64,000 bases of DNA from an uncultured Verrucomicrobiota bacterium (GCA_903876795.1 CAIRBK010000097.1:17012-81011), one strand, 5' to 3'. Counted from the stretch's first letter, positions 3,301-62,102 are shown. The notes: generated from the sequence alone by a model not told the origin. Numbers and translations: made by a program.

Positions 3301-4700
3301 GGATGAGTCAACGATGCCCGGCCCAGTCCGGCGCGCAATGCGTCCTCAAGGTTTTCGTGGCGGAAACCATAGTGAGCCTCTTTCAGCACTCCAGGCAGCA
3401 CCCGCGTGCTCGCCAGCAACAGTTCATCCGCCATCTCACCGAGCGCCAAACGCAGCGCGACTTTCGGCGCAGGCAACAGGGCGGGCCGGCGCAAAACCCG
3501 CGCCAGCGTCCGGGTAAACTCCGCGTTGGTCATGGGATTCGGCGCGACTGCGTTGACCGGCCCCCGGCAACGCTGGTCGAGGACCGCGTGGTAAATGGCG
3601 CCCACCAGATCATCCAGCGATATCCAGCTCATGCACATGCGACCGTCGCCCAGGCGTCCGCCAAGGCCGGCCTTGAACAGCGGCAGCAGCCGGGCAAGCG
3701 CGCCGCCCGCCGGGGTGAGCACCACTCCGGTGCGCAGGGTAACCACGCGCACGCCCAACGCCTCTGCCGCGACCGCCGCCTTTTCCCAGTCAATGCAGAC
3801 ATCGGCCAAATAACCGGCGCCCGTTGCGGAGTCCTCCTTGAGCATCTCGTCTCCGCGATCCCCATACACGCCGATGGCCGAGGCCGAGATCAAAACGAAC
3901 GGCCGATGTCTTTCGTTTCGCACCGCCCCGATCGCTGATACGAGCGTCCGCGTGCCGTCCACCCGGCTGCGCAGGATTTCCTGCTTGCGCGCCGCCGACC
4001 AGCGGGCGTCGGCGATGCCTGCCCCGGAGAGATTCACAATGACATCCACGTCCCTCAGCGCGCCCGGGGCGATTTCTCCAGTAGCGGGATTCCAAAACAC
4101 CTCGTCAGGCGCCGCCGTCGCCCGCCTCACCAACCGGACCACCGTGTGACCCTGTGTTGTTAAAAACGCGGTCAAGGAACGTCCGACCAGGCCCGACGAT
4201 CCGGCGATCAGGAATGTCATCGGCCTGACCGAAAGGTAACGCGCCGCCCCCTCGATATCCGCCTTGGTGATCGCGTGACGATAAGTGAAAAGCCGCTCCA
4301 ATTCGCCCCGGACAAACCCTCGGCCGAGACGACCGAAAGGCCCGAACGGCAGCCGGTAGGTGATCGCATCGGTGAGCACGCAGGCGCGCCCGTCCTCGAC
4401 CGACTCCACGCGATGGAGGTGTTCCCAGCGCGCGAAGGGCCCCCGCAACTGCACGTCACGAAACTGCACCCCCTCGACATAGTCGCGATGCTCCACATCC
4501 CAGCGCGCCCACACCGGTCCGATACGGGCGAGCAAGCTTACCTTCGCACCGTCGCGAATGCCGCCACTGCGGGCAAGCAACCGCAGCTTTTGCCAAGGCG
4601 GCGCGAGGCGTTCAAAGGCGCCTGGCCGTTCGTGCCAGGAAAAGACTTCGGCGGCGGGTCTTGAGATGCGCAGGCTGCGCGTAAAGGTGAAATCACTCAT
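3297..4700 (-). CDS. SRPBCC domain fused to TIGR01777-family NAD-dependent epimerase-like protein
   Basis: N-terminal SRPBCC-like region (FSWHERPGAFERLAPPW..FRDVQLRGPF..WEHLH) then AGSSGLVG, SASAIGVYG, WISLDD, GPVNAVAP; start moved to MSDFTF. Confidence 0.85.
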   Translation of the reverse strand: MSDFTFTRSLRISRPAAEVFSWHERPGAFERLAPPWQKLRLLARSGGIRDGAKVSLLARIGPVWARWDVEHRDYVEGVQFRDVQLRGPFARWEHLHRVESVEDGRACVLTDAITYRLPFGPFGRLGRGFVRGELERLFTYRHAITKADIEGAARYLSVRPMTFLIAGSSGLVGRSLTAFLTTQGHTVVRLVRRATAAPDEVFWNPATGEIAPGALRDVDVIVNLSGAGIADARWSAARKQEILRSRVDGTRTLVSAIGAVRNERHRPFVLISASAIGVYGDRGDEMLKEDSATGAGYLADVCIDWEKAAVAAEALGVRVVTLRTGVVLTPAGGALARLLPLFKAGLGGRLGDGRMCMSWISLDDLVGAIYHAVLDQRCRGPVNAVAPNPMTNAEFTRTLARVLRRPALLPAPKVALRLALGEMADELLLASTRVLPGVLKEAHYGFRHENLEDALRAGLGRASLTHP

Positions 4701-4843
4701 TTCGTGGCCCGCCCCTTTCGCAGCCGGCAGCCCTCGGAGCAATACTTCACCTCGTCCCATACCTTTTCCCATTTCTTGCGCCATGCGAAGGGACGCCCGC
4801 AAACCACGCAGGTTTTTTCCGGCAGATCGGACTTTTTTCGCAT
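4697..4843 (-). CDS. DUF2256-like small cysteine protein
   Basis: 48 aa MRKKSDLPEKTCVVCGRPFAWRKKW..VKYCSEGCR, the C-terminal part of ORF 4697..5476; overlaps the next gene by ATGA. Confidence 0.85.
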   Translation of the reverse strand: MRKKSDLPEKTCVVCGRPFAWRKKWEKVWDEVKYCSEGCRLRKGRATK

Positions 4844-43128: not shown

Positions 43129-46100
43129 GTGGTCTCCTCCTTCTCTGCTCCCGCGCACCTCCGTCCCGCCAGGCCCGACTGCATCCGCCTGCGCGGTGTC
43201 CGCCAAAACAACCTCAAGGGCTTTGATCTCGACCTGCCCCTCGGGCGCTATGTGGTCGTCACCGGCCTCTCCGGCGCGGGCAAGAGTTCCCTTGTTTTCG
43301 ACACCCTCCACGCCGAGGGCCAGCGCCGCTACGTCGAGACGTTCTCCGCCTACACCCGGCAATTCCTCGACCTCCTCGACAAGCCGGCGGTCGACTCCAT
43401 CGAAAACATCCGTCCGTCCATCGCCATCGAGCAGACGAACACCGTCAAAACTTCGCGCTCCACCGTCGGGACGATGACCGAATTGACCGACTTTTTTAAA
43501 GTCTGGTTCAGCCACGTCGCCACGTGCTTCGACCCTGCCACCGGCAAACCCGTCGAGGATGACACTCCGTCGTCCATCTGGGAAAAAACCCACACCTCCA
43601 CGCCCGGCGCCCAGGTGATCGTCGCCTTCAACGTCGCCAAACCCGAAAAACTCACCTGGCCCGAAATCCTCACCAACCTCAAGGCCCAGTCCTACGTCCG
43701 TGTCCTCCTTTCGAGCAGCCGCATGCGTGAGCGAGCGGTCTCCGTCGCCCGCATCGACGACCTTCTATCCTCCGAATGTAGGAGCCTGCTTGCAGGCGAT
43801 TCCGACCACCTCTTCGTCGCCCAGGACCGACTCACGATCACACCCGACGCGCGCCCTCGCTTCCTCGAAGCCGTCGAAACCGCGCTACACTTCGGCCAGG
43901 GCCAGGTTCACCTCTTCGCCGCCGACACCCTTGCTCCGCTCGGCCACTACTCGCGGGGACTGCACTCGCCGGAAACCGGCCGCACGTTCCGCCCCGCCTC
44001 CCCCGCCCTCTTCTCGTTCAACTCCCCGCTCGGCGCCTGTCCACAATGCCGCGGCTTCGGACGCATCATCGAGATCGACTACCGTCTCGCCATCCCCGAC
44101 CAGACGCTCTCCATCGCCGACGGCGCCATCAAATGCTGGGAAGGCGAGGTCTACAGCGCGTCCAAAGACGACCTGATCTCCGTCGCCAAACGCAAAAAAA
44201 TCCCCGTCAACGTCCCCTTCGCGTCCCTGACGCCGGAACAACGCGATTTCGTCATCAACGGCGAAAACGGCTACGGCGAAAACGGACTCGATTGGCCCCG
44301 TGCCTGGTATGGCGTGAAGGGTTTCTTCAGCTGGCTCGAAAAGAACACCTACAAGATGCATGTGCGCGTTTTTCTCTCGCGCTACCGTGCCTACAACGAG
44401 TGCCCGTCCTGCCGGGGCACCCGGCTCCAACCCGAGTCCCTTTGCTGGAAATGGCAGGGCCGCACCCTGCCCGAGCTCTACCAACTCCCTGTCAGCCAGC
44501 TTTGGGATTCCTTGTCTTCGCGTAGCAACGAGCTTGCTCGCGATTCCGAGTCCGCCCACAGCGCCACCATCGCCTTCGACGCCATCCTCACACGGCTCCG
44601 TTACCTCCAACAAGTTGGTCTAGGCTACCTCACGCTAGACCGCACTTCGAAAACCCTCTCGGGCGGCGAAGTCCAGCGCGTCAACCTCACCTCCTGTCTG
44701 GGCACATCGCTCGTGGACACGCTCTTTGTCCTCGACGAGCCCAGCGTCGGCCTGCACCCGCGCGACATCGACCGCCTCATCGCGATCATCCGCACGCTCA
44801 CCGACGCCGGCAATACCGTCGTTGTCGTCGAGCACGACGAGGCCATGATTCGTGCCGCCGACCACCTCATCGAGATCGGCCCCGAACCCGGCACCCGCGG
44901 CGGCCACATCGTTTTTCAAGGCGATCTGCCCGGCCTCCTCACCTCCGACGCCATCACCGGCCGCTACCTCTCCGGCCGCGACTCCATCGCGGTCCCGACC
45001 ACCCGCCGCCCGGTCGGCTCTCCTCGTGTCGGTGAGAGTGAGCGACCCGACTCCGGTTGGCTCACCTTCCACGACGCCTCCAAGCACAACCTCCGCAACG
45101 TCACCCTCTCGCTGCCGCTTCACCGCCTCGTCGCGCTTTCCGGTGTCTCCGGCTCCGGCAAATCCACGCTGCTCGACAACGTCATCCACCAGGGACTCCT
45201 TTCGAAACGCCTCCAACTCACCGAAGACCCCGCCACCATCGCCGTCATCACCGGCGACGACGCCTTCTCCGAGATCGTGCTCGTCGATCAATCGCCCCTC
45301 TCCCGCACGCCCCGCTCCAACCCCGCCCTCTACACCGAGGCCTGGGACTTCATCCGCGAACTCTACGCACGCGAACCCGCCGCCAAGGAGGCCGGCTTCA
45401 ACAGTTCCTCCTTTTCTTTTAACAGCGGCGACGGCCGTTGCGACCACTGCCAAGGCCTCGGCTACGAGCGTGTCGAGATGCAGTTCCTCTCCGATGTCTT
45501 TGTCCCCTGCCCTATCTGCGAGGGTCGCCGCTTTAAACCCGAAGTCCTGTCCATCCGTTGGCGCCAGCTCTCCGTTTCCGATCTCCTCGCCACCAGCATC
45601 AACGACGCGCTGCCGCTCTTCGACAGCCACCCCGCAATCCGCTCCCGCCTCGCCAGTCTCGAATCCGTCGGCCTCGGCTACCTCACCCTCGGCCAGCCGC
45701 TCAACACCCTCAGCGGCGGCGAATCCCAACGCCTCAAACTGGTCAAGTATCTCAGCAACTTCACCGGCGCGCCTTCGTCGCCACCTGATATTTCCAATCC
45801 CAAATCTGAGATTCCGACAGGAGCCCTGCTCCTCTTGGACGAGCCCACCACCGGCCTGCACCGCCACGACGTCAAACGCCTCATCGCCATTCTGCAGGCG
45901 CTCGTCGACCGTGGTCACAGCGTCGTGGTGATCGAGCACAACCTCGACGTCCTAAAATCCGCCGACTGGCTCATCGAGGTCGGCCCCGAAGCCGGCGCCG
46001 AAGGTGGCCAAATCATCGCCGAGGGCCCGCCCGAAGCGGTCGCCCGCGCCCGCACCGCCACCTCGCCCTTCCTCCGCCAGGCCCTGAGCTTGGCCGCGAG

Positions 46101-48885
46101 CGAAAGCGAGGGGTGCGACTCCCTCCTGCTCGCCGCCGAGGACCCCGCCCGTTACAACGCGACTCCCGCGGCCTCCGGCGCTCGGCTCGTCCTCACCGGC
46201 GCCCGCGAAAACAACCTCAAAAACCTCTCGCTCTCCATCGACCACCGCGCCCTCACGGTCGTCACCGGCGTGTCCGGCTCCGGCAAGAGCACCCTCGCCT
46301 TCGACATCGTCTTCGCCGAGGGCCAGCGCCGTTTCATGGAGTCGATGTCGCCCTACGCGCGCCAATTCGTCGAGCAACTCCCCCGCCCCGCCATCGACCG
46401 GCTCACCGGCATCCCGCCCACCGTCGCCATCGAGCAGCGCATCACTCGCGGCTCCCGCAAGTCCACCGTCGCCACCATCACCGAGGTCGCCCAATACCTG
46501 CGCCTCCTCTACGCCCGCCTCGGCGTCCAACACCACCCCGACACCGGCAAGCCCGTCCAACCGCTCACCCCCGGCCAGCTCAAAAAACTTCTGACGACCG
46601 TCCTCGCCTCGCCCAAGGCCGCGAAGGCGAAACATCTCTACCTCTGCGCCCCGCTGGTTCGCGGCCGCAAGGGCCACCACCAACCCATCGCCACCTGGAT
46701 AGCCGACCACGGCTACGAACTCATGCGCGCCGACGGAAAACTCCTCCGGGTGGATACGTTCCAAAAACTCGACCGCTACTCCGAACACGACATCGAGGTC
46801 GTCGTCGCCGACCTCAAATCCGACGCTCAACCTTCGACTCTCAACTCTCGGCTGACCGACGCCCTGCGCCTCGGCAAGGGCTCCTGTTTCATCGCCCTGC
46901 CCAACGGCGCTATTCTCTCCTGGTTTTCGACCACCCGCACCGACATCGAGACCGGAGAATCCTTTCCCGAGCTCGACCCGAAACAGTTCTCGCACAACTC
47001 CCCGCGCGGCTGGTGCCCGACCTGCCGCGGGCACGGTCGCGTCTTCCCCTGGATGCTTGAACCCGCCGACGACGAGGGCAAAGAAGACCCCGCCGCCCGC
47101 CTCCGCGAATTCGGCATCGAATCCGGCGATGATGTGCCCGACACCGGCACGCCTTGCCCCGAGTGCTGCGGCCAGCGACTCAACCGCGTCGCCCGAGCCG
47201 TCCGCCTCCACCTCAACGGCAAACTCGCCCCCGTCTCCCTCCCCGAGCTCCTCGCCAGCACGCCAGCCCGGCTCCTCAACCTCCTCGGCGCCCTCAAGCT
47301 CGACGAACGCGGCACCCTCATCACCCGGGACATCGTCCCGCAGATCCGCGAACGGCTCCGTTTCCTTGACCACGTCGGCCTCGGCTACCTCTCTCTCGAC
47401 CGGCCCACCGACACGCTTTCCGGCGGCGAAGCCCAGCGCATCCGTCTCGCCTCGCAACTCGGCACCAACCTCGCCGGCGTGCTCTACGTGCTCGACGAAC
47501 CTTCCATCGGCCTGCACGCCCGCGACAACGACCGCCTCATCGAGACCCTCCTCGCCCTGCGCGACAAAGGTAACACCCTGCTGGTGGTCGAGCACGACGA
47601 CGAACTCATGGAACGGGCCGACAGCATCATCGACCTCGGCCCCGCCGCCGGCGTCCACGGCGGCGAGCTTCTCGCCCACGGCACCCCCGCCGAGATCAAG
47701 CAAAGCGCCAAATCCCTCACGGGCCTCTTCCTGGCACGCGGCATCCCCCACCCGCTGCGCGGTGCTTACCGGGAGATTCCCAACGCCAAAGGTCCAACGT
47801 CCAAAAAAGAAAACGCCGCCTGGCTCACGCTCTCCGGCGTCCGTTTCCGCAACCTCAAGGGCTTCGACCTGCACCTACCCCACGGCCGCCTCATCATGGT
47901 CTGCGGCCCCTCCGGCGCCGGCAAATCCACCCTCTTCCGCGACGTCCTCCACCCCGCCGTCACCCACGCGATCAAAACACAGTCCGCCAAACTCACCGGA
48001 AAATCCTTTGTTCGTAATACGAACATTGCCGACTCCGTCCCTTTTCTAGATCTGCGCAACGCCGACGCCTTCAAGTCCGTCATCGAGGTCGATCAATCCC
48101 CCATCGGCAAAACCCCGCGCTCCACGCCGGCGACTTACCTGGGTATCTTTGATCTGATCCGCCAGTTCTTCGCGTCGTTGCCCGAGGCAAAAATGCGCGG
48201 CTACACCTCCGGCCGCTTCTCGTTCAACACCGCCGGCGGTCGCTGCGAAACCTGCGCCGGCGGCGGTCGCATCAAGCTCGAGATGGCCTTCATGCCCGAC
48301 ACCTACCTGCCTTGCGACGACTGCCGCGGCACGCGTTACGGACCCGAACTCGCCGACATCACCTGGAAGGGCAAAAACATCGGCCAGGTCCTCCGGCTCA
48401 CTTTCGAGGAAGCCGTCGGTTTCTTCGATTTCCACTCGCAGCTCTCCCAGGTCTGCCAGCTCATGGTGGACTGTGGACTGGGTTACCTCACCCTCGGCCA
48501 GTCCTCGCCCACGCTCTCCGGCGGCGAAGCCCAGCGCCTCAAACTCGTGACCGAGCTCGCCCACGGTCTGCAAAGCTACCGGGAGCGCAGCCGCGGCATC
48601 GCGATCAAAAACCTCTATCTCCTCGAAGAGCCCACCATCGGCCTGCACTTGAGCGATTGCGAGAAACTCATCAAGGTCCTCCATTCGCTCGTCGATCAGG
48701 GGCACACAGTAGTCGTCATCGAACACCACCTGGACCTGCTGGCCGAGGCGGACTACATTATCGAACTCGGCCCCGTCGGCGGCCCCGAGGGCGGCGAACT
48801 CCTTTATCAAGGCCCCCTGGCCGGGCTCCTGAAGCTGAAGTCCAGTCCCACCGCCCCTTACCTGAATTCCAAACTGCGGCGGTAA
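43129..48885 (+). CDS. uvrA: Excinuclease ABC subunit A, double-length (tandem UvrA fusion)
   Basis: 1918 aa; four Walker A motifs (GLSGAGKS, GVSGSGKS x2, GPSGAGKS), four LSGGE signatures, repeated zinc-finger Cys motifs. Confidence 0.93.
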   Translation: MVSSFSAPAHLRPARPDCIRLRGVRQNNLKGFDLDLPLGRYVVVTGLSGAGKSSLVFDTLHAEGQRRYVETFSAYTRQFLDLLDKPAVDSIENIRPSIAIEQTNTVKTSRSTVGTMTELTDFFKVWFSHVATCFDPATGKPVEDDTPSSIWEKTHTSTPGAQVIVAFNVAKPEKLTWPEILTNLKAQSYVRVLLSSSRMRERAVSVARIDDLLSSECRSLLAGDSDHLFVAQDRLTITPDARPRFLEAVETALHFGQGQVHLFAADTLAPLGHYSRGLHSPETGRTFRPASPALFSFNSPLGACPQCRGFGRIIEIDYRLAIPDQTLSIADGAIKCWEGEVYSASKDDLISVAKRKKIPVNVPFASLTPEQRDFVINGENGYGENGLDWPRAWYGVKGFFSWLEKNTYKMHVRVFLSRYRAYNECPSCRGTRLQPESLCWKWQGRTLPELYQLPVSQLWDSLSSRSNELARDSESAHSATIAFDAILTRLRYLQQVGLGYLTLDRTSKTLSGGEVQRVNLTSCLGTSLVDTLFVLDEPSVGLHPRDIDRLIAIIRTLTDAGNTVVVVEHDEAMIRAADHLIEIGPEPGTRGGHIVFQGDLPGLLTSDAITGRYLSGRDSIAVPTTRRPVGSPRVGESERPDSGWLTFHDASKHNLRNVTLSLPLHRLVALSGVSGSGKSTLLDNVIHQGLLSKRLQLTEDPATIAVITGDDAFSEIVLVDQSPLSRTPRSNPALYTEAWDFIRELYAREPAAKEAGFNSSSFSFNSGDGRCDHCQGLGYERVEMQFLSDVFVPCPICEGRRFKPEVLSIRWRQLSVSDLLATSINDALPLFDSHPAIRSRLASLESVGLGYLTLGQPLNTLSGGESQRLKLVKYLSNFTGAPSSPPDISNPKSEIPTGALLLLDEPTTGLHRHDVKRLIAILQALVDRGHSVVVIEHNLDVLKSADWLIEVGPEAGAEGGQIIAEGPPEAVARARTATSPFLRQALSLAASESEGCDSLLLAAEDPARYNATPAASGARLVLTGARENNLKNLSLSIDHRALTVVTGVSGSGKSTLAFDIVFAEGQRRFMESMSPYARQFVEQLPRPAIDRLTGIPPTVAIEQRITRGSRKSTVATITEVAQYLRLLYARLGVQHHPDTGKPVQPLTPGQLKKLLTTVLASPKAAKAKHLYLCAPLVRGRKGHHQPIATWIADHGYELMRADGKLLRVDTFQKLDRYSEHDIEVVVADLKSDAQPSTLNSRLTDALRLGKGSCFIALPNGAILSWFSTTRTDIETGESFPELDPKQFSHNSPRGWCPTCRGHGRVFPWMLEPADDEGKEDPAARLREFGIESGDDVPDTGTPCPECCGQRLNRVARAVRLHLNGKLAPVSLPELLASTPARLLNLLGALKLDERGTLITRDIVPQIRERLRFLDHVGLGYLSLDRPTDTLSGGEAQRIRLASQLGTNLAGVLYVLDEPSIGLHARDNDRLIETLLALRDKGNTLLVVEHDDELMERADSIIDLGPAAGVHGGELLAHGTPAEIKQSAKSLTGLFLARGIPHPLRGAYREIPNAKGPTSKKENAAWLTLSGVRFRNLKGFDLHLPHGRLIMVCGPSGAGKSTLFRDVLHPAVTHAIKTQSAKLTGKSFVRNTNIADSVPFLDLRNADAFKSVIEVDQSPIGKTPRSTPATYLGIFDLIRQFFASLPEAKMRGYTSGRFSFNTAGGRCETCAGGGRIKLEMAFMPDTYLPCDDCRGTRYGPELADITWKGKNIGQVLRLTFEEAVGFFDFHSQLSQVCQLMVDCGLGYLTLGQSSPTLSGGEAQRLKLVTELAHGLQSYRERSRGIAIKNLYLLEEPTIGLHLSDCEKLIKVLHSLVDQGHTVVVIEHHLDLLAEADYIIELGPVGGPEGGELLYQGPLAGLLKLKSSPTAPYLNSKLRR
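43777..43803 (+). repeat. GTAG-class REP-like palindrome, in frame in uvrA
   Basis: TGTAGGAG-CCTGC-TT-GCAGG-CGATTCC. Confidence 0.75.
44521..44547 (+). repeat. Second GTAG-class REP-like palindrome, in frame in uvrA
   Basis: CGTAGCAA-CGAGC-TT-GCTCG-CGATTCC; same layout as 43777 with a different but paired stem. Confidence 0.75.
45791..45818 (+). repeat. Degenerate heptamer tandem repeat, in frame in uvrA
   Basis: TTTCCAA TCCCAAA TCTGAGA TTCCGAC (peptide ISNPKSEIP). Confidence 0.6.
46825..46852 (+). repeat. Degenerate heptamer tandem repeat, in frame in uvrA
   Basis: GCTCAAC CTTCGAC TCTCAAC TCTCGGC (peptide AQPSTLNSR). Confidence 0.7.
47777..47804 (+). repeat. Degenerate heptamer tandem repeat, in frame in uvrA
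   Basis: TTCCCAA CGCCAAA GGTCCAA CGTCCAA (peptide IPNAKGPTSK). Confidence 0.65.
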
Positions 48886-58744: not shown

Positions 58745-60043
58745 ATGACCTTAACGTCTCTTTACCACCTGATTAAACGCCGCGCCCTTCCCTGCGCGGC
58801 CGTCGCTGCCATGCCGTTGTTTTTCGGCGGCTGGTTCAAGTGGCTCACCGGCCCCCAATCCACGTTCGATACCCACGGCCCCGTGGCCAAGTCGCAGCTG
58901 GAGGTGTTTTATGTCACGCTCTGGGTGACGGGCATAACTTTTGTAATCGTTGCGAGCATAATGGCTTATGCCATGTTCAAGTTTCGTGCGCGCAAGACCG
59001 ACGACCCCAAGGCCGTCATGCCGCACCAAGGTCACGGCAACCCCCTGATCGAGCTCAGCCTCATCGCCCTTTCCGTGCTGGCGCTGGTGTTCATCGCCGT
59101 CCCCACCATGAAGGCCATCTGGTATACCTACGATGTCCCCGCAGACCAGAAGGCTACTGCCTACGAGGTCACCGCCACCGGTCTCCAGTGGTGGTTCAAA
59201 TTCGAATACCCGAAAGAGCAAATCGACGGCGCCGGAAACCTCATCACCGCCAACGAGCTGGTCATACCTGCCGGCCGCCCCGTTCGCGTCAACTTGCGCA
59301 CCACCGATGTCATCCATTCGTTCTGGGTTCCGAAGCTGGCCGGCAAGGTGGATATGATCCCCAATCGCGGCAACCACCTCTGGCTGCAAGCCGACAAACC
59401 CGGCTACTTCTGGGGTCAATGTGCCGAGTTCTGCGGCGAATCCCACGCCGTCATGCGTTTCCGAGTGATCGCCCTCGACGAACCCGAATTCGCCGCTTGG
59501 GTCGCCCACCAGAAAACCACCGCCCGGACCGTCCCAGCCGATGCGCCACCGGCCGGAGAACCGGCCGCACCTTACGTATTCAACAATCCCGGCCGCAACG
59601 CCCCCGGCTACTCCGCCGCTTTCGACGCCGATCCGATGGGTGCCTGGAAAAAGCAGCAGCAGATCGAGGCCGGCGAGGATCCCAAGCTCATCGCCGAAGG
59701 CCGCAAGATATTCCAACAAAAGAACTGCGTGACCTGCCACGCCGTGCGCGGACATGAGGGCATGGGCGTGACCGCCCCCGATCTCACCCACATCGGCTCC
59801 CGCACCACGATCGCCGCCGGCCTCCTTGAAAACACCAAGGAAAACCTCCACCGCTGGATCGCCCACCCCAACGAGGTCAAACCCGGCAACAAGATGTATG
59901 TCGGCGTCCCCACCGGCGGTGGCAATGTCATGATGGGTTACATGGAAATCGACCGCACTTCCGGCAAGGCCGTTAACACGCACATCGCCATCTCCGACAC
60001 CGATGCCCGTGCCCTCGTCGCCTACATGCACAGCCTCAAATAA
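58745..60043 (+). CDS. ctaC: Cytochrome c oxidase subunit II with a fused cytochrome c (caa3 type)
   Basis: DVIHSFW, CAEFCGESHAVM CuA motif, C-terminal CVTCH heme c site. Confidence 0.95.
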   Translation: MTLTSLYHLIKRRALPCAAVAAMPLFFGGWFKWLTGPQSTFDTHGPVAKSQLEVFYVTLWVTGITFVIVASIMAYAMFKFRARKTDDPKAVMPHQGHGNPLIELSLIALSVLALVFIAVPTMKAIWYTYDVPADQKATAYEVTATGLQWWFKFEYPKEQIDGAGNLITANELVIPAGRPVRVNLRTTDVIHSFWVPKLAGKVDMIPNRGNHLWLQADKPGYFWGQCAEFCGESHAVMRFRVIALDEPEFAAWVAHQKTTARTVPADAPPAGEPAAPYVFNNPGRNAPGYSAAFDADPMGAWKKQQQIEAGEDPKLIAEGRKIFQQKNCVTCHAVRGHEGMGVTAPDLTHIGSRTTIAAGLLENTKENLHRWIAHPNEVKPGNKMYVGVPTGGGNVMMGYMEIDRTSGKAVNTHIAISDTDARALVAYMHSLK

Positions 60044-60068
60044 AGCCTCTCTTTTAAAGCCCGCCACT

Positions 60069-62012
60069 ATGTCCGCTCACGCCAAAACCGATTTCGTCGG
60101 CCACGATGCGCCCGCCTCTCCCGCGGAACAGCGCTCCTGGCTTCTCACCCGCCCGACCGCCAAAACCGGCATCGTCAGCTGGCTCACCACCGTCGATCAC
60201 AAGAAGATCGGCCTGATGTATGGCATCTCCGCCTTGTTCTTCTTCCTCGTGGGCGGATTCGAGGCGCTGCTCATCCGCATCCAGCTTGCCGTGCCAAACA
60301 ACACGTTCATCTCGCACCAGCTCTACAACGAGTTGTTCACGATGCACGCGACCACGATGATCTTCCTGGCGGTCATGCCACTCTCGGCGGCTTTCTTCAA
60401 TTACATGATGCCGCTCCAGATCGGTGCCCGCGACGTTGCCTTCCCTCGACTCAACGGCTTCGCCTTCTGGGTATTCCTGGCCGGTGCCATCGTCCTCAAC
60501 CTCGGTTGGTTCGTTCGCTCCGGAGCCCCCGACGCCGGCTGGTTCGGCTACGCCCCGCTCACCTCCACGGCCTACTCCAACCAGTTCGCCGGTGACATGT
60601 CCACCGACCTCTGGATCATGGGCCTTCAAATCCTTGGCGTCTCCTCGGTGGTTGGCTCCCTCAACTTCATCGTCACCATCATCAACATGCGCGCTCCCGG
60701 CATGACCATGATGCGCCTGCCGGTCTTCACATGGATGACCTTGATCACCGCCTTCCTAATCATCCTCTCTTTCCCCGCCATCACCATCGCACTGGTCGAG
60801 TTGATGATGGACCGTTCTTTCGGCACCACCTTCTTCGAGGTCTCCAACGGCGGCCTGCCCATCCTCTGGCAACACCTTTTCTGGATCTTCGGGCACCCCG
60901 AAGTTTACATCCTCATTCTTCCAGCGATGGGCATCGTCTCGGAAATCCTGCCCACCTTCTCGCGCAAGCCACTCTTCGGTTATCCGATCATCGTGTTCTC
61001 GGGCGCCACCATCGGCTTCCTTGGCTTCGGCGTATGGTCGCACCACATGTTCACCACCGGCATGGGCACCGTCGCCACGGCCGCCTTCTCGCTCCTGACC
61101 ATGGCCATCGCCGTGCCCACGGGCGTAAAGATGTTCAATTGGATCGGCACACTTTGGGGCGGCCACCTCCAGATGCGCACGCCCATGATGTTTGCCCTGG
61201 GCTTCATGTGGATGTTCATGATGGGCGGTTTCTCCGGCGTGATGCACTCCGCCGCCCCCGCCGACGCCCAGCAGCAGGACAGTTATTTCGTCGTGGCCCA
61301 CTTCCACTATGTGTTGATCGGCGGCTCGGTCTTCGCCCTGCTCGCCGGCATACACTACTGGTTCCCGCTCGTCTTCGGCCGCAAGGTCTCCGAGTTCTGG
61401 GGCAAGCTCTCCTTCTGGGTGATCTTCGCCGGCTTCAACATCACGTTCTTCCCGATGCACTTCCTCGGCCTGAACGGCATGCCGCGCCGCACCGCCGTTT
61501 ACGACGGCAACATGGGCTGGAACGACGCCAACCTCATCGCCACCATCGGCGCCATGATTCTCGCGGTCGGTGTCGGCATTTACTTCACCGTGATGGTCTA
61601 CTCCTATTTCAAGGGCGACAAAACCCGCCATGACGAATGGGATGCCCGCACACTCGAATGGACCGTACCGTCCACTCCCCCGCCCGAGCATAACTTCGAC
61701 GTCATCCCGACCGTCCATGCCCGCGACGCGTTCTGGTATGAAAAGACCCACAAAGAGGAGATCGCCAAGGAAAAGGCCGAGCACGCCAAGGCCGAGGAAG
61801 ACCACGGCGGCATTCACATGCCCAGCCAGTCCTGGTTCCCGCTGGTCGCAGCCGTAGGCCTGTTGATCGGCGCATTGTTCTTCGTGAACCACCTCATGAT
61901 CGGCGCCATCTTCGGAGGAGTAATCATGTTCCTCGGCGTCTACCTCTGGGCCGCCGAAGGTCCGGGCGGTTACCACATCCACCTCGACCACAAGAATCAC
62001 GACAAACACTAA
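60069..62012 (+). CDS. ctaD: Cytochrome c oxidase subunit I (type A1)
   Basis: TMHAT, WIFGHPEVY, WSHHM, VAHFHY; C-terminal extension with two extra TM helices. Confidence 0.96.
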   Translation: MSAHAKTDFVGHDAPASPAEQRSWLLTRPTAKTGIVSWLTTVDHKKIGLMYGISALFFFLVGGFEALLIRIQLAVPNNTFISHQLYNELFTMHATTMIFLAVMPLSAAFFNYMMPLQIGARDVAFPRLNGFAFWVFLAGAIVLNLGWFVRSGAPDAGWFGYAPLTSTAYSNQFAGDMSTDLWIMGLQILGVSSVVGSLNFIVTIINMRAPGMTMMRLPVFTWMTLITAFLIILSFPAITIALVELMMDRSFGTTFFEVSNGGLPILWQHLFWIFGHPEVYILILPAMGIVSEILPTFSRKPLFGYPIIVFSGATIGFLGFGVWSHHMFTTGMGTVATAAFSLLTMAIAVPTGVKMFNWIGTLWGGHLQMRTPMMFALGFMWMFMMGGFSGVMHSAAPADAQQQDSYFVVAHFHYVLIGGSVFALLAGIHYWFPLVFGRKVSEFWGKLSFWVIFAGFNITFFPMHFLGLNGMPRRTAVYDGNMGWNDANLIATIGAMILAVGVGIYFTVMVYSYFKGDKTRHDEWDARTLEWTVPSTPPPEHNFDVIPTVHARDAFWYEKTHKEEIAKEKAEHAKAEEDHGGIHMPSQSWFPLVAAVGLLIGALFFVNHLMIGAIFGGVIMFLGVYLWAAEGPGGYHIHLDHKNHDKH

Positions 62013-62102
62013 GTCCGAAAAGGCGGGATCCCGTTTACGGCCGATTCCGACCCTCGCCCGTAAATCGGCTCACGTCTTCCAATCTTCTTTCCACTCTCAG
62101 CC

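Follow-up and report, generated by a model that had tools for sequence, protein, structure and literature searches.

Two GTAG-type REP units translated in frame in a double uvrA gene of an uncultured Verrucomicrobiota bacterium

Introduction

The locus described here raises the question of how two palindromic motifs, resembling repeats that usually lie between genes, came to be read as part of a protein. It is found in a window (the whole stretch of DNA that was analysed) of 64,000 nucleotides (nt) from an uncultured Verrucomicrobiota bacterium (GCA_903876795.1, CAIRBK010000097.1:17012-81011), a freshwater member of the Opitutaceae, and comprises an open reading frame (ORF) at positions 43129-48885 of the plus strand, assigned to the uvrA family, with two repetitive extragenic palindromic (REP) units of the GTAG type inside it. 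A sequence-only reading of the window had described the two palindromes and proposed that a REP family is invading an essential DNA-repair gene at tolerant loops and adding new peptide segments to its product. The interpretation preferred here, to which a probability of roughly 0.8 is given, is that both motifs are REP-family units fixed in frame in tolerant UvrA loops and translated as passenger peptides.

The two REP units and their host gene

Copy 1 (site 1) occupies positions 43778-43803 of the plus strand, has the sequence GTAGGAGCCTGCTTGCAGGCGATTCC, and is translated as (C)RSLLAGDS, codons 217-225; copy 2 (site 2), GTAGCAACGAGCTTGCTCGCGATTCC, lies at 44522-44547 of the same strand and is translated as RSNELARDS, codons 465-473. 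The two are identical at 20 of 26 positions, and these include the head GTAG, the core GC-TT-GC, and the tail GCGATTCC with GA after it. Each starts with the unpaired terminal GTAG, after which come a stem of 5-6 bp and a TT loop, and the 5-bp stems, CCTGC/GCAGG in copy 1 and CGAGC/GCTCG in copy 2, differ at two positions, both of them compensated. Both copies are in the same reading frame of the ORF. The sequence itself, a pattern scan, and translation of the ORF thus all confirm the palindromes, their compensatory stems, and their in-frame position in uvrA, as first described.

With one mismatch allowed, the shared pattern occurs at two places only in the 64-kb window, which are copies 1 and 2, and dinucleotide-preserving shuffles yield a mean of 0.09 matches, with two or more in none of 100. 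A relaxed structural scan of the window (any 5-bp stem, TT or AA loop) revealed no further family members. A generic scan of the window for GTAG followed by any 5-7 bp hairpin found 16 cases against about 20 expected, i.e., the chance level, and was dropped as a definition of the family; the significance of the two copies therefore rests on the specific shared motif and not on hairpins in general.

The host ORF has zero internal stops, its reading frame being intact through both REPs, and codes for 1918 amino acids. It is matched by the Pfam families ABC_tran, UvrA_inter, and UvrA_DNA-bind and by the PDB UvrA chains 3PIH and 2R6F (E ~1e-153), and the UvrA architecture (Walker A, signature, Walker B, zinc modules, UvrB-binding and insertion domains) is present twice in tandem, giving four ABC ATPase modules. 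As judged from these matches, the gene encodes a UvrA-family protein in a double head-to-tail form, with a predicted activity in repair. An exact-protein look-up of the 1918-residue product gave no match on record; homologues of 1800-1990 amino acids are many, and in architecture the product is orthologous to these double UvrAs, Oter_2709 of O. terrae among them. To call the gene essential was an overstatement, since the host is a fused double-UvrA paralogue and Opitutus terrae has also a canonical uvrA of 999 amino acids.

The two sites were placed by alignment to the solved UvrA structures 3PIH and 2R6F. Relative to both, site 1 is an alignment gap within a loop of the UvrB-binding-domain region of module 1, and the conserved strand '...VVDR...' comes shortly after it. 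Site 2 belongs to the signature domain I connector, before the helix that leads on to '...RLxFLxxVGLxYLxL...LSGGE', and there the query exceeds the crystallised UvrA proteins by 4-5 residues.

The REP family in other genomes

Both copies, together with a variant from a relative, are covered by the degenerate pattern GTRGNANCNNGCTTGCNNGCGATTCC, with 19 fully specified bases, which was used to scan the genome collection. The scan bore out the occurrence of the motif beyond the window: at least 120 stretches match, mostly in metagenome-assembled genomes (MAGs) of Opitutaceae. Among the matches listed, about 97 of 120 loci belong to Opitutaceae, Opitutia, or other Verrucomicrobiota MAGs (Opitutus, Rariglobus, Lacunisphaera), many of which contribute several contigs with REP matches, and the remaining listed loci come from Pseudomonas, Luteibacter, Thiobacillus, and other Proteobacteria. 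Copy 1 is, base for base, the commonest variant of the family, and the same 26-mer is found in dozens of Opitutaceae loci; copy 2 is identical at 24 of 26 positions to the CGAGC variant, the second commonest, its head being changed from GGAGC to GCAAC (family score 22/24).

The head is GTAGGAGC in 113 and GTGGGAGC in 20 of the 137 strict matches listed. At the two stem pairs left unconstrained by the pattern, 94.9% and 92.7% of these matches show Watson-Crick pairing, while a control with shuffled partners gives 45% and 33% (maxima 57% and 43%); the REP hairpin is maintained by compensatory changes across the copies of the family. A looser definition yields 264 units in 883 kb of the listed loci, with the stems CCTGC/GCAGG (92 units) and CGAGC/GCTCG (49), then CCCGC, CGCGC, CGTGC, CGGGC, CCAGC, CTTGC, and others; at least nine stem variants are fully complementary. 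As to the arrangement of neighbouring units, 79 cases are tail-to-tail, 9 head-to-head, and 20 direct, the predominant tail-to-tail inverted doublet being the arrangement known as REPIN (REP doublet forming hairpin). Both uvrA copies are singletons.

The family is also found in frame inside other genes: a REP doublet at residue 445 of a Peptidase_M3 gene from a Rariglobus MAG (L061), inside the Pfam match 285-775, a unit in the linker between the flavodoxin and FAD-binding parts of a reductase from an Opitutus MAG (L029), and further units in a DUF3656 gene (L105) and in an Orn/DAP decarboxylase gene (L078). In-frame REPs inside real genes, with Pfam domains flanking or spanning them, are general for the family.

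Tandem arrays of these REPs, with repeated flanks, a period of ~47-128 nt, and up to five strict copies in 7 kb, are seen in loci L065, L009, and L069 (MAG Loc080925-8-8m_bin-163) and resemble the clusters of GTAG-1 units that have been described in some Proteobacteria. Pseudomonas (L014, L020, L035, L060, L087), Luteibacter (L008/L121), Thiobacillus (L030), and Lysobacteraceae (L113/L120) share the 26-nt architecture, down to the tail GCGATTCC; with Gamma- and Betaproteobacteria thus having it besides Verrucomicrobiota, it may be asked whether the REP system with its transposase is of ancient origin or was transferred.

A search by tblastn with an Escherichia coli REP-associated tyrosine transposase (RAYT) as the query, which served as a lead only, the matches being then confirmed with Pfam and NCBIfam, revealed two ORFs lying between REPs of this family, with REPs on both sides (L064:1269-1781 and L110:6886-7401). 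They score 97.8 and 90.0 bits, respectively, against the NCBIfam equivalog NF047646 'REP-associated tyrosine transposase' (cutoff 80), the one in L064 also passing Pfam Y1_Tnp, and both contain an HUH motif (PDHVHTVI, PDHVHALI) and a C-terminal Y...LNP motif. The assignment of the motifs to a GTAG-type REP family is thus upheld: the stems covary, the doublets are REPIN-like, and related genomes have cognate RAYT genes.

In the window itself, a tail-to-tail REP doublet of the same family, with the CCCGT/ACGGG stem variant, lies at 62023-62075 (no strand assigned). It is a decayed REPIN relic, its left unit having a family score of 19/24, and its predicted fold is a single long hairpin with imperfections (-13.6 kcal/mol, z = -2.2). 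It occupies an intergenic gap directly after the stop codon of the ORF at 60003-62012, the usual habitat of REPs, which implies that the source genome has or had the family outside genes.

Codon usage and the possibility of a chance resemblance

A or T is the third base in eight of the 18 codons of the elements, compared with 17% of codons in the gene (P = 0.006), and AGG, GCA, GCT, and CTT, all present in the elements, are rare, each accounting for at most 0.07 of synonymous usage. The codon usage of the elements is non-adapted, a sign of their non-coding origin. On inspection, five of the six frames of the family consensus are open, a stop being found only in the G/TAG frame, so the openness of the elements is unremarkable.

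These data bear on one rival explanation, according to which the motifs do not descend from a mobile element and owe their likeness to each other and to REPs to chance, or to selection for similar peptides (x-L-A-x-D-S). It could appeal to the presence of only two copies in the window and to a nearby native UvrA helix encoding a similar LA-x-DS peptide. Nevertheless, copy 1 is identical to the commonest variant of a family with more than 100 loci and copy 2 differs from another at two positions, the 20/26 DNA identity of the copies exceeds what 4 of 8 shared residues would need, and the shuffles and the codon usage speak against it as well. A chance origin of the motifs is effectively refuted.

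History of the two sites

The comparison included 80 orthologous loci (61-81% amino acid identity) and four more contigs, obtained by an exhaustive HMMER search and a metagenome scan. In the neighbour-joining tree the nearest of them (L125-L129) group as (window, ((L125, L126), (L127, L128))), with L129 outside. At both sites the loops are hypervariable in length and sequence across the 80 orthologues, most of which have no element at either; together with the gap and connector positions in the solved structures, this agrees with the tolerant loops of the sequence-only reading. In the long-read contigs L002 and L003 frameshifts, probably long-read errors, break the orthologous double uvrA up into many short called genes; owing to such splitting, the protein database returns only fragments for this gene family.

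The site-1 REP is common only to the window, L125/L126 (27 of 27 nt, including the preceding T), and L001 (26 of 27, head GTGG). In L127/L128 an unrelated stretch two codons shorter is found at this site, and in about 70 other lineages a loop of ~11 residues of the ADxxPLAxAxH type, three codons shorter than in the window. The simplest history that the alignment suggests would be a gain in the common ancestor of the small clade with subsequent replacement in L127/L128, the alternative being two independent gains at the same spot. The site-1 REP predates a split with ~17% nt divergence. In L001 (ENA ERZ27252491 k141_5343000, ~1150-1162), the closest relative, an in-frame TAA follows the site-1 REP after four codons (CTC TAA GTC versus CTC TTC GTC in the window); the contig ends ~70 nt past this TAA, which could mean that the gene is a pseudogene, or be due to strain variation or to an error of assembly.

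The site-2 REP is found, within its clade, in the window only. L125-L128 have there a (CATTGGT)n-like heptamer run, ATTGGGCATTGGTCATTGGATATTGGTCATTCC (e.g., L126 ~3440-3475), translated as GHWSLDIGHSP and of the same codon length as the REP of the window, and in L129 the loop is shorter. L198, a distant orthologue of 67% amino acid identity, has TGTGGGAGCGAGCTTGCTCGCGAC in the site-2 columns in the same frame, and L187 has GGCAACGAACGTGCTCGCGAC, identical to copy 2 at 17 of 26 positions and possibly a decayed REP.

Lake-water metagenome contigs are identical to the window across both sites, and a strain of ~96% identity has retained the site-1 REP, in which a single synonymous substitution (43779 T>C) turns GTAG into GCAG. 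Both copies are fixed in the lake populations, and at least the head at site 1 is drifting like ordinary coding DNA. A joint from 44496 to 44647 ('skips 150', run X6), which would remove site 2, is seen at the end of a single short contig, where 33 nt lie to one side of it, and is given no weight. The claim that the family 'is invading' the gene was too strong: apart from being fixed, the copies include one older than the ~17% split, there is no RAYT in the window, and the sole other copy is the decayed doublet.

Other repeats in the UvrA loops

The same loops contain other sequences in other lineages. Inserts at site 1 are of the VERSALNVER type (L142, L189, L196, L198), WMLGVGRWALDVGR (L152), or SRSPLSP (L131/L135/L143), and those at site 2 comprise WSLGLGH, NPKSEI, and ETRNSEPGTRNP, the first being a variant of the heptamer run in distant orthologues (a run is noted also for L168, L172, L190, and L194). 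In several orthologues, DNA nearly matching the 3' half of the REP (GC..GCGATTCC) encodes the native helix '...LA[R/H]DSI...' that lies just downstream of site 2, e.g., CTGGCGCGCGATTCC in L195, and likewise in L144/L150 and L176/L177. An apparent excess of weak REP-like matches at site 2 across the orthologues (1.34 versus 0.19 per kb) was rejected as a sign of REP remnants, as it corresponds to this conserved native helix, '...LA[R/H/F]DSI...'.

Several further observations concern these connectors. P0018, a representative with 72% identity, has at residues ~470-520 an insert of ~45 residues at site 2, within which repeats are seen (SETRQSFDS...SETRERFDP...ANPQSAFRIPQS); this, too, points to a connector tolerant of repetitive DNA. 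In L198 there are two REP-like units, the one at site 2 of module 1 mentioned above (3519-3544) and one in the equivalent connector of module 2 (4686-4711), GTGGGAGCGGGCTCGCTCGCGACTCC, read as AECGSGLARDSLAEIRTRL. In the window, a third in-frame insert, of low complexity, SSPPDISNPKSEIP, lies at 45775-45816 of the plus strand (codons 883-896), within the linker that joins LSGGE to Walker B in ATPase module 2. The number of extra residues in this linker varies from ~5 to more than 60 among 70 orthologues, and the linker is filled with the recurring motifs ISNLKSEIP, ENQKSKIENP, and NPEPETRNPE, which suggests another class of translated repeats.

Origin and retention of the two units

The preferred reading may be put as follows. 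Single units of a GTAG-1-type REP/REPIN family common in Opitutaceae would have landed in two surface loops of the first ATPase module, probably by RAYT-mediated mobilisation (HUH/Y1, single-strand DNA), as is to be expected from knowledge of the family. With a stop-free frame at each site, each unit would be translated as a nine-residue stretch, and the copies may have been retained as tolerated passengers, the loops presumably accepting almost any sequence and only a precise in-frame loss being able to remove them. Site 1 would be the old event, common to the ~17% diverged lineage, and site 2 a younger one, specific to the branch of the window. What is observed is the family membership, the covarying hairpin, the RAYTs beside such REPs in related genomes, the location in loops, the phylogenetic distribution, and the codon usage.

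Several observations weigh against this reading. Neither a RAYT (tblastn) nor a relative of the L064 and L110 ORFs was found in the 64-kb window, where, besides copies 1 and 2, the family is represented by the decayed doublet at 62023-62075 only, with no further intact REP; activity of the family in the source genome is on this account unproven. The segments had been taken for insertions, and this part of the claim stands in so far as they are absent from most of the 80 orthologues. Neither site, as aligned, appears to be a clean 26-nt insertion, the loop sequence having apparently been replaced, or else trimmed afterwards to restore the frame: the net change in length is +9 nt (three codons) at site 1, with the ancestral loop replaced, and 0 nt at site 2 relative to the sister clade, so that an alignment with the nearest orthologues is free of gaps there, these carrying a different repeat of equal length. 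The recurrence at exact codon columns in L198, and possibly in L187, is awkward for simple independent random insertion. Finally, the site-1 REP is identical at 27 of 27 positions in the window and L125/L126, and its flanks are 82.8% identical (68% at third positions); the excess has P ~0.006 overall and ~0.03 for third positions alone. Conservation of site 1 is greater than predicted for a purely neutral passenger, so that a constraint at the nucleotide level, or homogenisation with other copies of the REP, may be considered.

Part of this would be better explained if the REPs had arrived not by transposition but by copying, with REPs elsewhere in the genome serving as the source for gene conversion or template switching into loop DNA that already existed, and had perhaps been refreshed repeatedly. 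Such copying would account for the replacement at site 2 of one repeat by another of exactly equal codon length, for the perfect identity of site 1 across lineages ~17% diverged, for recurrence in the same columns, and for the REP-like elements of L198 in equivalent loops of two modules; the REP-like DNA of the native helix at site 2 (as in L195) could offer microhomology. On the other hand, the window shows no copies that could have served as donors, the microhomology was noticed in retrospect at positions ranked highest by score, and the ordinary synonymous change 43779 T>C in the ~96% identical strain argues against continuing homogenisation. An origin by conversion is considered unlikely.

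The excess conservation of site 1 over its flanks also bears on the view that the intragenic hairpins are kept for a function, be it as mRNA structures (slowing translation between domains, or affecting stability), as DNA sites for RAYT, gyrase, or a nucleoid protein, or as peptides modifying UvrA. The retention of rare codons, the presence of both intact copies of the 64-kb window in the one gene, and published data in which REPs repeatedly tag uvrA and further repair genes (PMC3733652) would fit it. The hairpins, however, are weak as DNA (-5.7 kcal/mol for copy 1 and -9.5 for copy 2; z = -1.1 and -2.3), most orthologues do without the REP and have unrelated sequences or other repeats in the same loops, the head of copy 2 is mutated and that of copy 1 is GCAG in the close strain, and the family inserts into many unrelated genes. 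A functional role of the hairpins or their peptides is considered very improbable. A related idea is likewise given little weight, namely that several unrelated repeat families would land, or be converted, again and again in the same few UvrA-family loops, perhaps as their targets, and that at least the site-1 REP would be under nucleotide-level constraint. If it were true, the REP would have a role at the DNA or RNA level, or the repair protein would be altered, as Di Nocera et al. speculated for REP-tagged repair genes.

The locus offers a clean, phylogenetically dated example of a mobile hairpin repeat becoming protein sequence. The fact that the same UvrA loops gather different repeat families in different lineages gives some substance to the question of whether repair genes are preferred targets of REPs or tolerant hosts. 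For annotation it implies caution: REP-like peptides such as CRSLLAGDS and RSNELARDS belong to a real protein and are no sign of a spurious ORF.

Comparison with known systems

The closest precedent is that of O. terrae. Di Nocera, De Gregorio, and Rocco, who defined the GTAG and CGTC REP super-families (2013, BMC Genomics 14:522; PMC3733652), found in this species the most intragenic GTAG REPs of the genomes surveyed, with two REP insertions in each of its two uvrA genes, and speculated on an altered activity of REP-tagged repair genes. Oter_2709 (1995 amino acids, a double UvrA) has GTAG-19 units at 638-644 and 1601-1623, and Oter_3168 (999 amino acids) has a GTAG-17 dimer at 224-239 and a GTAG-19 dimer at 440-462 (PMC3733652). 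The novelty implied by the sequence-only reading is thus not upheld: in-frame GTAG REPs in uvrA genes of Opitutus have been in print since 2013, and the likeness extends to the bacterial family, the kind of host gene, and the two insertions per gene (PMC3733652). The two cases differ in the REPs themselves, which are GTAG-17 and GTAG-19 in O. terrae, with peptides like VAGVVDPGPGS and GTGVPPV...HGRDARAT, and GTAG-1-type here (GGAGC-stem-TT-stem-GCGATTCC). They differ also in position (638-644 and 1601-1623 in Oter_2709 versus 217-225 and 465-473) and in form, those of Oter_3168 being dimers and both copies studied here singletons. It is not claimed that the Oter_3168 insertions lie in the same two loops, their spacing being ~200 residues versus ~240 here and ~248 in 2R6F.

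The GTAG-1 type is not listed for O. terrae; the peptides listed for GTAG-1 of Pseudomonas include CGSELARE..., VGASLLA, and REQARSY (PMC3733652). The present family is regarded as GTAG-1-type because its translations match these. With the REPIN/RAYT system of Pseudomonas it shares the GT[A/G]GGAGC head, a short GC-rich stem with compensatory sub-families, the GCGA tail, inverted doublets, and a REP-flanked RAYT (Bertels and Rainey 2011, PMC3116915; Nunvar et al.; PMC3733652). It differs from that system in its host phylum, Verrucomicrobiota, in the extended and invariant tail (GCGATTCC), and in the predominance of tail-to-tail doublets with short spacers; moreover, the two copies studied here are intragenic singletons.

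A further parallel is provided by the Rickettsia palindromic elements (RPE), which, in the account of Ogata et al. from 2000, reportedly lie in frame in still-functional genes and add peptide segments that are usually surface-exposed. Here, too, palindromic repeats are located in an intact ORF and translated. RPE-1 elements, ~100-150 bp long, are much longer than the present REPs and belong to other sequence families, and to our knowledge no cognate RAYT of RPE has been reported. A CGTC tag is carried by RPE-4 and RPE-6 (PMC3733652).

The phenomenon, the host gene family, and the bacterial family have thus all been described before, and the novelty lies in the particular case: the REP family is a different one, the positions are not the same, the copies are singletons, and the phylogenetic context is dated. 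It extends the 2013 report on O. terrae. A GTAG-1-type REP/RAYT system, classically known from Pseudomonas, is widespread in uncultured Opitutaceae.

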